A DNA stretch of 15,908 nt from the UHGV virus genome UHGV-0361135; one strand, written 5' to 3'. A model generated the notes under the pieces. The model did not search any database. It saw nothing but the letters and a program-made list of their open reading frames with translations, and was not told the DNA's origin. The stretch is from a virus. Shown here piece by piece: positions 936-5,989 of the stretch (position 1 is the first letter of the stretch; each line of letters starts with the position of its first letter). A program made the translations under genes and the position numbers.

Positions 936-1169
936 ATGCGCATTGAAATAATGATCGATAAAGAGCAGAAAATTAGCCAGTCTACCCTGGACGCCCTTGA
1001 ATCCGAGCTTTACCGCAATCTGCGCCCCCTGTATCCCAAAGCGGTAATTCGTATCCGTAAAGGTAGCTCTAATGGTGTGGAACTGACCGGACTGCAACTG
1101 GACGAAGAAAGAAAACAAGTGATGAAAATTATGCAGAAGGTGTGGGAAGACGACAGCTGGCTGCATTAA
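936..1169 (+). CDS. DinI-family protein (77 aa), resembling the DinI-like C-terminal domain of phage 186 Tum antirepressor
   Basis: MRIEIMIDK...LDALESEL...SSNGVELTG...KQVMKIMQKVWEDDSWL aligns well with E. coli DinI as I recall it (MRIEVTIAK...IDALAGEL...ILQETWESADDWF). A GAGGTGA RBS precedes the ATG at 936. Confidence 0.88.
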   Translation: MRIEIMIDKEQKISQSTLDALESELYRNLRPLYPKAVIRIRKGSSNGVELTGLQLDEERKQVMKIMQKVWEDDSWLH

Positions 1170-1170
1170 G

Positions 1171-1213
1171 AAACGTTGCTGGCGTCTGAACTTGCTTCTG
1201 ACGTCAGCAACGT
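1171..1213 (+). repeat. Inverted repeat (15-bp stem, 13-nt loop) immediately 3' of the DinI-like gene; possible terminator or boundary element
   Basis: aacgttgctggcgtc (1171-1185) pairs with gacgtcagcaacgtt (1199-1213) with one G-U position. There is no U-tract after it, so it is not a canonical intrinsic terminator. Confidence 0.5.
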
Positions 1214-1435
1214 TGAACAACTAGTTTAGTGGGGCATTAGTCATGGGGTAAAATACAGTAACCATTATTTTCACTTCCGCTCAGATTTAACCGAACGTTA
1301 GTTTTGCTACGTATGATGGGCTGCAAATTACCTTTTGGGATTTGTGATAGATACGAAAATCCTATTAGATGCTTGTTAGACCGGAAGCGCCACTTCGAAC
1401 GAAAAGTAATGGCCACTTATGCCGGTTTAAAAGCC

Positions 1436-1966
1436 TTAACCTTGTATAGTTATTTGAATATTTTCTTCATTAACACCAAAGTATAGGGCTAGCCCTGCTT
1501 TTGCCTCCTGAAGTGTTAACGGCTTAACTACATTTTCTTCTTCTTCTTCGTACTCATCACCCGCTTGATCGACAATCGAATTAGTCGGGGTTAATTTGGG
1601 AAGAGCTTTAAATTCCAACTTGTCAGCCTCAATGCCAATGTCTTTGAGGTTGCGATAAGAAACGGGATTCCGATTGCCATCCCATTGTCCTGGGATGTCA
1701 ATTTCAGCATAAGAATTGATGTTTATGATCCAGCGTTTAGGGTTTTCTGGAGCCCTGCTTACTCCCGAGATTCGACCGATCATAAAAGCATGATGATGTT
1801 TTGCTTCTTGTGATCCCCAGTCCTTTCTCGAATTTTGTACACAAACTAAATATTCGTGCTTAGCTGCATGGCTGGCGTCAAGTCTCCATGCTTGGCTTCC
1901 CCCTGTGTTCAAAATCTCTGTTAAACCACGAGCAGTAAGTACAGTAATACAGTTGGTAGTAGCCAT
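1436..1966 (-). CDS. Hypothetical 176-aa protein in AT-rich cargo island 1; function unknown, candidate accessory or anti-phage gene
   Basis: Intact 531-nt ORF on the minus strand with a purine-rich stretch (GACGGGG) upstream of the ATG at 1966. Composition differs from the flanking phage genes. It has an acidic patch (DEYEEEEEN) and a His-rich segment (KHHHAF). I recognise no family. Confidence 0.7.
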   Translation of the reverse strand: MATTNCITVLTARGLTEILNTGGSQAWRLDASHAAKHEYLVCVQNSRKDWGSQEAKHHHAFMIGRISGVSRAPENPKRWIININSYAEIDIPGQWDGNRNPVSYRNLKDIGIEADKLEFKALPKLTPTNSIVDQAGDEYEEEEENVVKPLTLQEAKAGLALYFGVNEENIQITIQG

Positions 1967-2283
1967 TGAATTGTGACCCCGTCTTTTTTAGAGAAATACT
2001 GTTGATGAATGTAGTTTACGTATTTTTTTATGGGGTAGTCAAGTTAGTATTATGCTCATTATTGGCTGTTTGTTGAGTGTTGTGAGTTGGTACTTTGTGT
2101 AGTATCTCTTGATTTATGAGGATTAAATCTAAGTTATGACAAAGGGAGGCAGGGGGAACGCGCAGCGCAAGGTGGACAGGAGGCCATAAGGACTCACTTG
2201 AAGTAAGAAAAGATCGATAAAGCAACAATGCATGTCTATGCCGCATGAATTCGCATGATCGTTTGAGGATCGTTTTAGTTGAG

Positions 2284-2311
2284 GCCCGCCAGGAATGGCG
2301 GGCTTTTGTTT
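2284..2311 (+). terminator. Rho-independent terminator-like hairpin on the plus strand with no annotated upstream plus-strand gene
   Basis: GCCCGCC (2284-2290), loop AGGAAT, GGCGGGC (2297-2303), followed by TTTTGTTT (2304-2311). Confidence 0.55.
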
Positions 2312-2481
2312 ATGTCATGCAAGTGCATGAAAACCACTACATAAAGCGGGCAGGCGTGGCGGGGATACGAGCGCGCGCTCATGGTTGAATTAATGAAATT
2401 ATGGTGTTAAATAGGCTAGCTTTTTAAGTCGTGAATATTCAATTTTTCAACTCATTTTTTTCATAGGGAGGAGTAATTGAC

Positions 2482-3180
2482 ATGGTTATGTTAGTGGATG
2501 ACTGTCCACGATGTGGATCACAAAAAATAGCGTTTGATGTTAATGGGCTGAATTGCACTAGGGTTTACAATGCATTGGGCGGGGGTAAAACATACGAGTA
2601 CGAGGTCTATTGTGTTTGCCGAGAGTGTCATAAAACGACAATGTTTCTTTGCAGACCTTTAACGAAAAATAAAACTTTAGATGGCTATAATTGGGAAAGT
2701 GGAATATTCGGCTTAAAGGAAGTTGCAGAGGTTGTTAGGCCTATATCACCGGCAGACTTAGCAGTAGAGGAGCCACCAGAGTTCTTACCTGAGCATATCA
2801 ATAGTGCATATGAGGAAGGGGCGAAATGTTTGGCTATAGGTTGTTATAATGCAGCAGCAACCATGTTTAGGCTTTGCCTTGATTATGCCACAAAAGGACT
2901 TCTTCCTGATGGGGAGCAAGGGCCTGCGCAAAAAATAAGGAGAAGCCTAGGGTTAAGAATGGAGTGGTTATTTGATAATCATCTACTGCCTGAAGCTTTA
3001 AGGGAACTAGCTGAATGCGTTAAAGATGACGGAAATGATGGAGCGCATGAAGGTATTTTGGATAAAGCTGCTGCTGAGGATCTTGAAGATTTTACCTATC
3101 TTTTTTTAGAACGGCTTTACACTGAACCTCAACGCCTTATCGAAGCCAAGACAAGGCGTGAACAAAGAAGAAACAAATAA
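2482..3180 (+). CDS. Zinc-ribbon plus DUF4145-like domain protein (232 aa); candidate single-gene defence or abortive-infection protein in cargo island 1
   Basis: GGGAGGAG RBS at 2466-2473, 8 nt before the ATG at 2482. The N-terminus has CxxC...CxxC (CPRCG...CRECH). The C-terminal region (AYEEGAKCLAIGCYNAAATMFRLCLDYATK...LRELAECVKDDGNDGAHEG) resembles the DUF4145 helical domain pattern as I recall it. Lower GC than the adjacent portal gene. Confidence 0.75.
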   Translation: MVMLVDDCPRCGSQKIAFDVNGLNCTRVYNALGGGKTYEYEVYCVCRECHKTTMFLCRPLTKNKTLDGYNWESGIFGLKEVAEVVRPISPADLAVEEPPEFLPEHINSAYEEGAKCLAIGCYNAAATMFRLCLDYATKGLLPDGEQGPAQKIRRSLGLRMEWLFDNHLLPEALRELAECVKDDGNDGAHEGILDKAAAEDLEDFTYLFLERLYTEPQRLIEAKTRREQRRNK

Positions 3181-3188
3181 GTTCGGAA

Positions 3189-4226
3189 TTATTCTTCTGA
3201 AAGAATATAGGGCGTAAATTTAATCACTTCTTCGCCCAGCCAGTCGTTCAGCTCTTGTAGCCTTTTTTGCAAGGGCGTTAATTCATTACGTACAAATACG
3301 CGACTGGCCTTCTCCACATCCCCAAATCCCCCAACATTATTAGGCATTATCCCCATCATTTGTGGCGGTACACGGTGCGCAGCCATCATGTCATCGCGGC
3401 TGACATTTTTGATATTCAGAAACTCATCCTTCGCCGCGACTTCTGACAGAGGAATGATCTGAAGGCCGTCCTTTTTGCCGTTCGGCGAGTACATAAACAG
3501 GTTACGGAAATTGCCAGGTCCTTTGGCGCTTTTCATCGCATTACGGAGGTTGTTTACATCCTCCTGGTTCTGCGCGGCGTCGGTCATGTACATGATGAAG
3601 CCTGCGTGGCTGCCGTTAATGTAATACTTGCGGCGGAACAGCGTGGCGGACTCGTTGAGTAGGGCTGACGGAATGGCAGAAAGATAACCGGGCAGGCCGT
3701 AGATCTCCTGGTTGATATCCGGTTCCATCAGGTGAAAAATGCTGCCTTTCGTGAACTGATACGGTTGCGTGGTCATGCCGTATTGCACAAACCAGTAGGT
3801 ATCCAGGTCTAATCCGCGTCGGGTGTATTTTGCCAGGGCAGGTTCAAGGGCGATAACTTCACCGAAGCGGTTCGTGCGTTTCTCCAGGTAGGCGTTACCA
3901 AAAACCAGATAGTCCTGCACAAAACGCGAAAAAGCCTGCTGGCTGAGCAGCGGGTGAGGGATGTAGGTGCTGGTCAGAATGTTGCACTTTACTGCAATCG
4001 GGGAACTATGATGCACGGCAGCGCGGAAGGTGCGCGCCAGTCCGTCAAAGCTGACGGGCGGCTCATACCAGCGGTCCATCTGTACGCATTCCACATAATC
4101 CAGCAGTTCTCGGCGGTCCAGAACAGGAACGGGATCGCCGAAGCTGAATGCTTCGGCTGTAGTTTGACTTTTAAGCTGGATCTGTTTCGTCGCCGCAGCG
4201 CGGTTCTTCTTACTCTTTCCCATCAA
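3189..4226 (-). CDS. Q: Capsid portal protein (P2 gpQ homolog)
   Basis: 345-aa ORF with a P2 Q-like N-terminus (MMGKSKKNRAAATKQ...), located immediately downstream of P on the minus strand with a 4-nt ATGA start/stop overlap. Canonical P2 Q-P arrangement. Confidence 0.92.
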   Translation of the reverse strand: MMGKSKKNRAAATKQIQLKSQTTAEAFSFGDPVPVLDRRELLDYVECVQMDRWYEPPVSFDGLARTFRAAVHHSSPIAVKCNILTSTYIPHPLLSQQAFSRFVQDYLVFGNAYLEKRTNRFGEVIALEPALAKYTRRGLDLDTYWFVQYGMTTQPYQFTKGSIFHLMEPDINQEIYGLPGYLSAIPSALLNESATLFRRKYYINGSHAGFIMYMTDAAQNQEDVNNLRNAMKSAKGPGNFRNLFMYSPNGKKDGLQIIPLSEVAAKDEFLNIKNVSRDDMMAAHRVPPQMMGIMPNNVGGFGDVEKASRVFVRNELTPLQKRLQELNDWLGEEVIKFTPYILSEE

Positions 4227-5989
4227 AAAATCTCCACAATATTGCTGGTATTGGCGGATTCGCCCTGCAGCGGTTCGTTAAACAGTGCGTGCATTGTTGC
4301 CCAGGCCAGATCGGCATGGCTGGCTTCTTCGCTGCGGCTGGCTTCATAGGTTGGGCGGTTGCCGCTGGCGGTGGTGGCGCGACGGATTGCCATAAATGAC
4401 TGCGCTATGTCGGTGTGTCCGGCGTCAAACTCCAGACGACGGTGACTGATAATGTCGTAGGCCTTGAGTACCAGGGCGTTTTTAACGTTGGGGTTGTAGA
4501 CAAACTCCCGGACGGCTGGAAAAAACGCTTTCACGTTCTCGTAAACCCCGTGGCCGACACCTGTCGAGTCGATGCCGATGTAGGTCACGTTGTACTGTTC
4601 GGTCAGTTTTTTGATGGCGTCAGCCTGGGCGCGAAAGTCCATTCCGCGCCACTGGTGACGCTCAAGAATGCGGAACTTGCCGCCCGGCACGGCTGGCGGT
4701 GCCACCACCACGCATCCGGCGCTGTCGCCATTCTGCGTACCTTTCGCCGGGTCATAACCGATCCATACTTCGCACCAGCCAAACGGGCGCAGGGCCAGTG
4801 CATGAAAGTCAGTCCAGACTTCCCAGCTGTCTACCATGCACGCCTGCAGCTCGCTGAGCGGGAACACGGACGCGAGATCGTCCACGAACTCACACATCAG
4901 CAGGTTCTGGTATTCGTCCGGGCTGTACTCCATGCGCAACTGGTCGAGATCGAACAGGTTACATCCGCCGCGCACAGCATCTTCCACGGTGACTATCTGG
5001 CGGTATTGCCCGTCTGCGCACAGCAGGCCGGGGGCCAGATTGCTGTGGGACAGGTCGATGTCCACCTTATCGGCTTTGTTGCGCCCACGGTTGAACAGCG
5101 CACCGGACCAGAACGGATAAGCACTGTGTGTCAGGCTGGATGGCGTGGAAAAATAGGTTTGTCGCCATTTTTTGTGAATAGCCATACCGGAAGCCACTTT
5201 GCGCAGCTCCTGGAATTTCGGTATCCAGAAATATTCATCCAGATACAGGTTGCCGTGGTAACTCTGGGCCGTGCGGGCATTGGTGCCGAGGAAGTAAAGC
5301 GTGGCCCCGTTGGGAAGCACCATCGGATCGCCTTTCAGCTCCACCTCCACTTCTTTGGCGAAGTCGATGATGTACTGTTTAAAGACGTGGGCCTGTGCCT
5401 TACTGGCAGAAAGGAAAATCTGGTTACGTCCGGTAAGCAGGGCGTCAATCAGGGCTTCACGGGCAAAATAGAAGGTCGCGCCGATCTGGCGTGACTTCAG
5501 CAGGTTGCGGATGCGGTTGGTTTTTCCGGCTTCCCACCAGTGGCGCTGGTAGTTGAACATGGAGGAATGGAAAATTTCTTCCAGCTTCTCAATCTGTTCA
5601 TCGGTGAAAACATTCTTTTCAGGCTGACGGCGTGGGCCTTTGTTGCGGTTGGCGACGTTAGGGTTTAAGTCAGCTTCGTTGCCGCCATTGTTAAACTTGC
5701 CGATCCGCGCGTGGCGCTCCGACTGGCGCGCCAGCAGGTCAATCTCTTTGAAATCTTTCCCTTCTTTGTGCTCCTTCATGATGAGCTGGCAGTAGCGTGC
5801 GGCGGTAGTGAGCTGCATCTGATCCAGCGGCCCATAGTCACCCCACTTGTCGCGTTTTTTCCAGCTGTGAACGGTTGCAACTTTCTCGCCCAGCATTTCA
5901 GCAATGCGGGCTACGCGGTATCCCTGAAAGTACAGCAGCATGGCCTGCCGACGGGGATCGAGATCTGCGGGTGTCAGTGTGGTGTTCAT
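4223..5989 (-). CDS. P: Terminase large (ATPase) subunit (P2 gpP homolog)
   Basis: 588-aa ORF, matching the size and position of P2 gpP. It is divergent from O across a 142-bp late-promoter region. Confidence 0.92.
   Translation of the reverse strand: MNTTLTPADLDPRRQAMLLYFQGYRVARIAEMLGEKVATVHSWKKRDKWGDYGPLDQMQLTTAARYCQLIMKEHKEGKDFKEIDLLARQSERHARIGKFNNGGNEADLNPNVANRNKGPRRQPEKNVFTDEQIEKLEEIFHSSMFNYQRHWWEAGKTNRIRNLLKSRQIGATFYFAREALIDALLTGRNQIFLSASKAQAHVFKQYIIDFAKEVEVELKGDPMVLPNGATLYFLGTNARTAQSYHGNLYLDEYFWIPKFQELRKVASGMAIHKKWRQTYFSTPSSLTHSAYPFWSGALFNRGRNKADKVDIDLSHSNLAPGLLCADGQYRQIVTVEDAVRGGCNLFDLDQLRMEYSPDEYQNLLMCEFVDDLASVFPLSELQACMVDSWEVWTDFHALALRPFGWCEVWIGYDPAKGTQNGDSAGCVVVAPPAVPGGKFRILERHQWRGMDFRAQADAIKKLTEQYNVTYIGIDSTGVGHGVYENVKAFFPAVREFVYNPNVKNALVLKAYDIISHRRLEFDAGHTDIAQSFMAIRRATTASGNRPTYEASRSEEASHADLAWATMHALFNEPLQGESANTSNIVEIF

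Follow-up and report, generated by a model that had tools for sequence, protein, structure and literature searches.

A probable P2-family cos packaging site with a predicted terminator in its spacer, bordered by exchanged cargo cassettes

Introduction

The cos site of phage lambda is organized as cosQ-cosN-cosB and carries R sites for the small terminase together with an IHF site. Lambda packages concatemers, whereas monomeric circles are the preferred packaging substrate of P2-type phages. The P2-type site is described, in papers citing Ziermann and Calendar (1990), as a conserved 55-bp core with 19-nt 5' cohesive ends, and for the satellite P4 cos is the sole homology with P2. Longer cos flanks raise P2-mediated cosmid transduction ~10^4-fold, and the elements responsible were not identified in that work. 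The hotspot between gpA and gpQ and the slot between cos and Q have also been described, with variable genes lying on both sides of cos. The record of phage 186 shows a LexA-controlled p95 (tum/DinI) operon with two terminators: t95a, which is partial, follows the DinI-type gene, and t95b, the final one, lies shortly before cos.

The DNA analyzed here is a 15,908-nt stretch of the viral genome UHGV-0361135, referred to throughout as the window. The original prediction drew attention to a long non-coding gap in it that contains a terminator-like hairpin, a palindrome, several GCATG copies and a 19-mer resembling a P2/186 cohesive end. Every one of these features is present exactly where it had been placed. 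Comparison with known phages and with complete E. coli genomes indicates that positions 2229-2378 are very probably the cos packaging site of a P2-family prophage, with a terminator in the spacer and exchanged cargo cassettes on either side.

Results

The gap occupies the P2-family cos position

The gap (1967-2481, 515 bp) separates a 176-aa gene on the minus strand (1436-1966) from a 232-aa gene on the plus strand (2482-3180). Pfam identified the genes to the right of the site as portal Q, large terminase P, the GPO scaffold O, the P2-type capsid N and small terminase M (PF05944). These five packaging/head genes adjoining the site are all full length with strong family matches, and the large terminase (TerL) contains Terminase_6N/6C domains plus the gpP N-terminal domain. 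On the left, comparison with annotated relatives revealed the end of a replication-endonuclease (gpA-type) gene, and the same side carries a 62-codon ORF (orf62) and a DinI gene. The site is located beside the terminase genes, between the gene A side with its accessory genes and portal Q, which is the map position of cos in P2, 186 and P4. The layout of the genes agrees with the records of P2, 186, Cartapus and SEN8, and the window is apparently part of an intact P2-family (Peduoviridae) prophage. The original prediction reasoned that, if the gap holds cos, the 232-aa gene sits between cos and Q; the gene does have the cos-like sequence on its left and the portal gene (3189-4226, minus strand) on its right, as in Cartapus.

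The cos block aligns to P2, 186 and P4 without gaps

The circular cos junctions of P2, 186 and P4 were rebuilt by joining the right and left ends of each record, and window positions 2229-2378 aligned to all three with no gap in any alignment. The similarity to P2 and 186 that the original prediction had proposed to look for extends over the whole of this interval, and 2313-2384 matches the P2, 186 and P4 junctions column by column, which upholds the assignment as cos. The counterpart of the 55-bp core shared by P2 and P4 is 2324-2378 (plus strand), with 42/55 identities to P2, 44/55 to 186 and 43/55 to P4 and zero gaps. Homology with the ends annotated in P2 and 186 places the predicted 19-nt 5' cohesive end, GGCGTGGCGGGGATACGAG, at 2353-2371 on the plus strand. 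It has 15/19 identities with 186 and 14/19 with both P2 and P4, and it fits the G+C-rich P2-family form GGCG(A/T)GGCGGGGA.... The 13-nt match to the P2/186 end given in the original prediction is exact for 186, whose first 13 nt are identical; the P2 figure applies to the 19-mer overall. Positions 14-19 of the cohesive end are TACGAG here versus AAGCAC in P2 and AAGCAT in 186. The corresponding cleavage positions would be 2352/2353 on the top strand and 2371/2372 on the bottom strand. The element shows all sequence-level hallmarks of the P2-family cos sites, an ordinary, already known kind, and cleavage at it is predicted by homology.

The right flank of the predicted cohesive end is CGCGCGC (2372-2378, plus strand). 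The family form YGCGCGC, shared with P2, 186 and P4, is nearly invariant at +20 to +26, columns that lie outside the pattern used to collect the sequences. Its reverse complement in the window, GCGCGCG, mirrors the GCGGGCA left of the top-strand nick and suggests a two-fold symmetric nicking site; the family-wide pair is GCGCGCR versus GCGGGCR. The window lacks the hairpin that P2 has immediately ahead of the nick (CCGCCC...GGGCGG).

The identical 19-mer lies in annotated cos sites of two phages. Escherichia phage Cartapus (Elveevirus) is 100% identical to the window over 2325-2550 and 95.7% identical over 2229-2320, and its record annotates a putative cos, by homology to P2 cos, over the equivalent of 2321-2379 with the 19-mer inside. 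The record of Salmonella phage SEN8 (Felsduovirus) starts at the 19-mer, annotated as putative cos, and ends at the equivalent of 2352; the genome announcement gives the cos site as ggcgtggcggggatacgag, and the DNA came from phage particles. The cos annotation in both records is by homology only ('putative'). For the ATACGAG cos variant, the open literature yielded homology-based cos calls and the 55-bp core, and no experimental end mapping was found in it.

The same alignments could be read as the trace of a fossil, the disused cos block of a defective prophage. The visible prophage is 15.9 kb and the window holds no direct sign of activity. Against this reading, the block is identical or nearly identical to those of Cartapus and SEN8, the latter sequenced from particle DNA, and none of the five neighboring packaging/head genes is truncated. 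Decay of the site is unlikely, and the alignments favor a cos block belonging to an intact prophage.

The conserved unit is 150 bp long

Scanning viral contigs with a sequence pattern gave 120 loci, from which three false positives and the loci that were too short were removed. The 116 cos regions analyzed, which include the window, P2, 186 and P4, were anchored at the nick and reduced to 62 representatives with <85% mutual identity. Alignment columns -5 to +13 are fixed by the search pattern and are uninformative about conservation; all other columns are free. The window's end, GGCGTGGCGGGGATACGAG, is the commonest of 9 cohesive-end variants among the 116 loci. The window's variant is shared by 43 loci, whose column identity stays at 0.8-1.0 between -124 and +26 and falls to ~0.3 just outside on both sides. 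These limits define a conserved block at 2229-2378 on the plus strand, numbered from the top-strand nick before 2353. Left flanks at the 43 loci are of 21 kinds and right flanks of 34 kinds, whereas the core forms only 4 clusters. The block was found in 1272 of 5426 complete E. coli genomes and in 104 phage records.

Cos variants and terminase clades go together. Those loci that have the window's variant encode TerL proteins at least 84% identical and TerS proteins at least 81% identical to those of the window, and loci with other variants encode TerL proteins 58-70% and TerS proteins 48-53% identical. Co-segregation of this kind is expected for a cognate site, and it could also be mere linkage, as the genes are 1-4 kb away.

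The spacer between the distal and proximal motifs of the block has diverged nearly to the level of random sequence between lineages with its length unchanged; over -95 to -39, the window and P2 are 28% identical. Within the window's lineage, the spacer carries the tandem 11-mers GATCGTTTGAG and GATCGTTTTAG at 2257-2278 (plus strand), which place two Dam (GATC) sites 11 bp apart. Both GATC sites are nearly invariant in the 43 same-variant loci and are absent from the P2/186/P4 consensus, making them lineage-specific.

A 47-codon ORF (2245-2388) crosses the predicted nicks and could in principle be a real gene that is intact only in circular or prophage DNA. Its reading frame is uninterrupted in the window and some relatives, and several phage records list it as a 'hypothetical protein'. 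In about 20 of 43 relatives, however, it is interrupted by in-frame stops between codons 6 and 22, the variable columns are spread evenly over the three codon positions (31/29/29), the product has no Pfam match and the ORF is missing in P2 and 186. Conservation follows the TGCAT motifs and not the reading frame. The stops in relatives and the lack of codon-position bias led to rejection of this ORF; the idea is largely refuted and a functional gene here is extremely improbable. The constraint on the interval is attributed to the cos block.

TGCAT motifs are fixed in distance to the nick

Five copies of GCATG/CATGC lie within 102 bp: GCATG starts at 2230, 2243, 2253 and 2325 and CATGC at 2316. 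The whole 15.9-kb window has 30 GCATG copies in both orientations, and the Poisson expectation for this cluster is 0.19 with P(at least 5) = 1.9e-6. Three of the copies are distal direct repeats on the plus strand, TGCATG at 2229-2234, CGCATG at 2242-2247 and CGCATG at 2252-2257, with spacings of 13 and 10 bp. The other two form a proximal inverted TGCAT pair, the palindrome TCATGCA-ag-TGCATGA at 2315-2330. The distances from the distal repeats to the proximal motif are 72, 82 and 95 bp, or ~7, 8 and 9 helical turns.

The positions of these motifs were compared across the 62 representatives, P4-like satellites among them, for which the background of a position-locked motif is 0.2/62 per position. 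GCAT occurs at -123 in 26/62, at -110 in 46/62, at -100 in 49/62 and at -28 in all 62. The palindrome's left arm, ATGC, occurs at -36 in 37/62 and is missing in P2. P2, 186 and P4 share with the window the ungapped block from -124 to +26, the three distal TGCAT repeats at the same distances from the nick and the proximal TGCAT at -29; the proximal repeat is TGCATG here versus TGCATT in the three phages. The GCATG copies and the palindrome, which the original prediction had listed as separate elements of the gap, are real, and they turn out to be conserved parts of the cos region and not separate curiosities.

The TGCAT motifs are most likely terminase recognition elements, because their distance to the nick is fixed and because they are present in P4, which shares only cos with P2. 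The published effect of the cos flanks on cosmid transduction fits such a role for the distal repeats. No description of the TGCAT repeats, and no test of terminase binding to them, was found in open papers. An array of short repeats beside the nick, a candidate counterpart of lambda-type cosB, is present and position-locked, and the gpP-type N-terminal domain of TerL has a weak helix-turn-helix match; either terminase subunit, TerS or TerL, could read the repeats.

A regulator of the adjacent accessory-gene promoters might instead use the repeats as operators. Repeat spacing of about one helical turn is typical of operators, and the P2 old-tin mRNA starts ~150 bp left of the nick, so its promoter must overlap the distal repeats. 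The distance of the repeats is fixed to the nick, however, and not to any gene. They persist beside any cargo in any orientation, including the 21 left flanks of a single lineage, and they are common to the satellite P4, which is otherwise without P2 homology. The candidate promoters of the 176-aa gene are 140-215 bp away. An operator function is improbable on these grounds, and recognition by the terminase is the preferred role for the motifs.

A predicted terminator is built into the spacer

The hairpin in the spacer is a predicted intrinsic terminator on the plus strand (2284-2311). Its stem, 2284-2290/2297-2303, is extendable to 2281-2306 and has the sequence GCCCGCC-AGGAAT-GGCGGGC followed by TTTTGTTT, the U tract at 2304-2311. 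RNA folding gave -20.8 kcal/mol with z = -4.1, and 0/200 shuffled sequences were as stable. A stem of 7 to 11 bp stands directly 5' of the U tract UUUUGUUU, as in intrinsic terminators; on the minus strand, the hairpin is without a U tract. This is the sole strong plus-strand terminator-like site in 1100-3400, and it is kept within the lineage of 43 same-variant loci.

The original prediction considered the terminator an orphan that might mark an sRNA or tiny ORF. Such a small independent plus-strand unit would lie within 1967-2311. The strength of the terminator on that strand is compatible with it, as is the distance to the nearest upstream plus-strand gene, which ends 1.1 kb away at 1169, and a 17-codon ORF can be read from an ATG at 2135. 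Both strands of the whole window were compared with Rfam 15 covariance models, and no sRNA or cis-regulatory family matched at E <= 1; a search of 1100-3400 for plus-strand promoter-like sites found none. The sole ORF that runs across the hairpin, the 47-codon one, is interrupted in about half of the relatives. The terminator belongs to the conserved block, whereas the DNA upstream of 2229 is cassette DNA present in 8 genomes, and a unit spanning that junction would be accidental. In relatives, the terminator lies directly past the DinI operon. An sRNA or tiny ORF ending at the hairpin is very unlikely, and the notion of an orphan was not borne out: the terminator is part of the conserved cos block.

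The relation to the DinI operon can be seen in E. coli JML285, whose prophage lacks the left cassette. There, the DinI stop, a post-DinI hairpin, 35 bp, the TGCATG repeats, the terminator and cos follow one another in this order within 230 bp, and the DinI-to-terminator distance is ~135 bp. In the window, a LexA box, TACTGTAAATATAAACAGTG, is located at 676-695, ~40 bp before the 62-codon ORF and DinI; no other CTGT-N8-ACAG occurs. DinI is followed by a 15-bp hairpin that lacks a U tract (1172-1214). The terminator seems orphaned in the window because an insertion of ~1 kb of leftward-transcribed cargo (~1223-2228) separates DinI from the cos block. The terminator would probably serve to halt rightward early/SOS transcription before cos and the antisense strand of Q and P, with the identity of the transcript presumed from gene order.

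Phage 186 offers a close parallel. Its t95b is likewise an intrinsic terminator that ends a rightward SOS operon before cos, and the window has the same LexA box, DinI and partial post-DinI hairpin. The terminator of the window is inside the block (-69 to -42), and that of 186 (-189 to -162) is outside it, to the left of the distal repeats. The two are analogous rather than positionally homologous.

In the family at large, conservation of the hairpin is limited to the inner CCAG-N4-CTGG(CG) part; a U tract is present in only a few lineages, and P2 is without the hairpin. The spacer of the window differs from those of P2, 186 and P4 in holding both a full terminator and two GATC sites. The terminator form is lineage-specific, and the conserved CCAG-N4-CTGG core may serve a role other than termination, because most lineages lack a U tract there. 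The central hairpin was also considered as a universal cos structure and rejected. Pairing was found in 61% of alignment cells versus 30-45% in slid controls, at least 6/7 pairs form in just 14/65 sequences and P2 does not have it. The palindrome's left arm and the central hairpin are both missing in P2 and are therefore not universally required for packaging.

Two cargo cassettes border the cos block

The 515-bp gap consists of three joined parts: 262 bp upstream of the left-cassette gene, the 150-bp cos block and ~100 bp upstream of the DUF4145 gene. The gap is so long because the promoter regions of two independently exchanged cargo cassettes flank cos.

The first part (1967-2228, minus strand, 38.9% G+C) is the promoter and leader region of the 176-aa gene and lies outside cos. 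It contains minus-strand promoter-like sites at 2086-2058, 2076-2049 and 2042-2013. Homology to relatives ends sharply at 2228/2229. The region is present in 8/5426 complete E. coli genomes, all with the same cassette, and no homology was found beyond those 8 E. coli genomes. The whole left cassette spans ~1223-2228, its left junction being set against the empty-site prophage of JML285. The 176-aa gene has no PADLOC or Pfam match. A 72-codon minus-strand ORF (2028-2246) was rejected as a gene: it has no Pfam or PHROG match, is unannotated by RefSeq in the near-identical JNE082640 locus and has no Shine-Dalgarno sequence before its start.

The third part (2379-2481, plus strand) is AT-rich (27.8% G+C) and carries a Shine-Dalgarno sequence, GGGAGGAG, at 2466-2473 before the start of the DUF4145 gene at 2482. 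Homology to most relatives stops at 2378-2383, and 2379-2481 is common only to Cartapus and to E. coli H22-type prophages with the same DUF4145 gene. The 232-aa product has the DUF4145 domain in Pfam and a weak PD-T7-4 match in PADLOC. In Cartapus, the same DUF4145 gene lies between cos and the portal gene; SEN8 has different cargo there, including an HNH endonuclease. The left flanks of both phages are unlike that of the window, with two rightward hypothetical genes in Cartapus and another leftward gene in SEN8.

The two cassettes exchange independently on either side of cos, as judged from genomes that share one side of the window. Strain JNE082640 shares 1170-2383 at 99.8% and then has a retron St85 system before the portal gene, and strain H22 shares 2229-3250 at 97.8%. 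Both halves together, the 176-aa cassette and the DUF4145 cassette, were found in 0/5426 complete E. coli genomes. A portal gene lies right of cos at 87 loci. Roughly half of these leave just 164-229 bp from cos to the portal stop, and the others have 0.4-4.4 kb of cargo; nearly all loci of the window's lineage carry cargo between cos and portal. Relatives have retrons and further defence genes at this position within the known gpA-gpQ hotspot, and nothing essential differs here.

Discussion

The course of packaging proposed for this prophage draws on P2 and P4 biology. After induction, the phage terminase would recognize the excised and circularized genome. The likely recognition elements are the direct TGCAT repeats at -124, -111 and -101 together with the inverted pair at -37 and -29, which are separated by roughly integral numbers of helical turns. 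Two nicks by the enzyme, staggered by 19 bp (top strand before 2353, bottom strand after 2371), would then yield linear DNA with the 5' overhangs GGCGTGGCGGGGATACGAG. The spacer terminator (2284-2311) would end rightward transcription of the early/SOS operon that comprises the LexA box, orf62 and DinI, which would keep this transcription from crossing cos and reading the late genes Q and P in antisense.

A mechanistic comparison can be made with lambda cos, in which a symmetric nicking site also stands beside an array of short repeats that positions terminase; in the window, the symmetry and the binding of protein to the array are predicted. The two sites have no sequence similarity. The lambda overhang is 12 nt versus the 19 nt predicted here, and, unlike in lambda, the repeats lie toward the future right end of the mature DNA.

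A broader interpretation is offered tentatively. The functional P2-family cos may be the whole 150-bp block and not the 55-bp core, with a looped or wrapped terminase complex formed through the three distal TGCAT repeats and the proximal TGCAT ~7, 8 and 9 helical turns away from them. In this lineage, the spacer may have been adapted twice, through a terminator that insulates cos from transcription of the SOS operon and through two Dam sites that could couple packaging to methylation. In phage P1, packaging at pac is coupled to the methylation state. The exact cos sequence is already known in the literature, by homology only, and what novelty there is would lie only in the possible reading of the entire 150 bp, comprising the phased repeats, the terminator and the two Dam sites, as one functional unit.

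The current understanding of P2-like phages is unchanged by this locus. The 'hypothetical protein' that several phage records place across cos is a spurious call, and the cassette boundaries are now precise for both cargo slots beside cos. The comparison would fix the genome ends for this prophage lineage, at the level of a prediction from sequence, and the natural limits of the block, -124 to +26, suggest which sequence P2/P4-based cosmids would need for a minimal yet efficient packaging signal.

Cargo genes on either side of cos

The right cassette encodes a 232-aa cargo protein (2482-3180) with a CxxC...CxxC motif in its N-terminal part, and Pfam places a DUF4145 domain at its C-terminus (E = 4.5e-7). 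The protein also matches PHROG 1305 and, weakly, the PADLOC model PD-T7-4 (E = 1.2e-6). Its gene, in the slot between cos and the portal gene Q, is a candidate anti-phage gene. The stop codons of the DUF4145 gene and the portal gene are convergent and lie 8 bp apart. Similarity to empty-site relatives, represented by locus L069, restarts only at 3223, within the portal gene, and the DUF4145 cassette therefore supplied its own last ~11 codons of Q. The empty-site relatives carry a strong terminator, tQ, between cos and Q that is absent from the window; a weak AT-rich hairpin lies at ~3192-3207.

The left cassette is rare, with 8 carriers among 5426 complete E. coli genomes. Searches of Pfam and PADLOC returned nothing for its 176-aa protein (1436-1966), and the sole match was PHROG 37247, a family of unknown function. 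In E. coli strain JNE082640 a retron St85 system lies on the opposite side of cos from this cassette.

A probable SOS operon left of cos

The only CTGT-N8-ACAG match in the window is the LexA box TACTGTAAATATAAACAGTG at 676-695. A 62-codon ORF (737-925) begins ~40 bp downstream of the box and is followed by the DinI gene (936-1169). Phage 186 has the same arrangement in its SOS-inducible p95 operon. Immediately 3' of DinI is a 15-bp perfect-to-wobble hairpin (1172-1214) that lacks a U tract, has a folding energy of -27.8 kcal/mol (z = -4.4) and is kept in relatives such as the prophage of E. coli strain JML285. This hairpin may be the counterpart of the 186 partial terminator t95a.

Dam sites and possible terminase recognition at cos

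In the spacer that separates the distal repeats from the terminator, tandem 11-mers, GATCGTTTGAG and GATCGTTTTAG, occupy 2257-2278 and give two Dam (GATC) sites spaced by one helical turn. Both sites are near-invariant within the cos lineage of the window, whereas P2, 186 and P4 lack them. The pac site of P1 is Dam-dependent, a property that the paired GATC sites recall. A 'hypothetical protein' is called over the cos block in MLG42, ST13-OXA48phi12.1, SE479_1PHIH2 and other public phage records, but comparison of relatives indicates that these calls are spurious.

The large terminase (4223-5989) has a gpP-type domain (PF06056) at its N-terminus, in which residues 13-46 weakly match the helix-turn-helix of sigma-70 region 4. 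This match suggests that the large subunit, and not the small terminase gpM alone, could read the TGCAT motifs. The cos forms of the 10 P4-like satellite loci among the 120 matches listed (L007-L126, from the pattern scan of viral contigs) are AGAGCAT, AAGCAC or TAGCAT, and none of the 10 has ATACGAG, the variant of the window's lineage. Judging from these listed matches, the terminase clade with the ATACGAG cos may not be parasitised by P4-like satellites.
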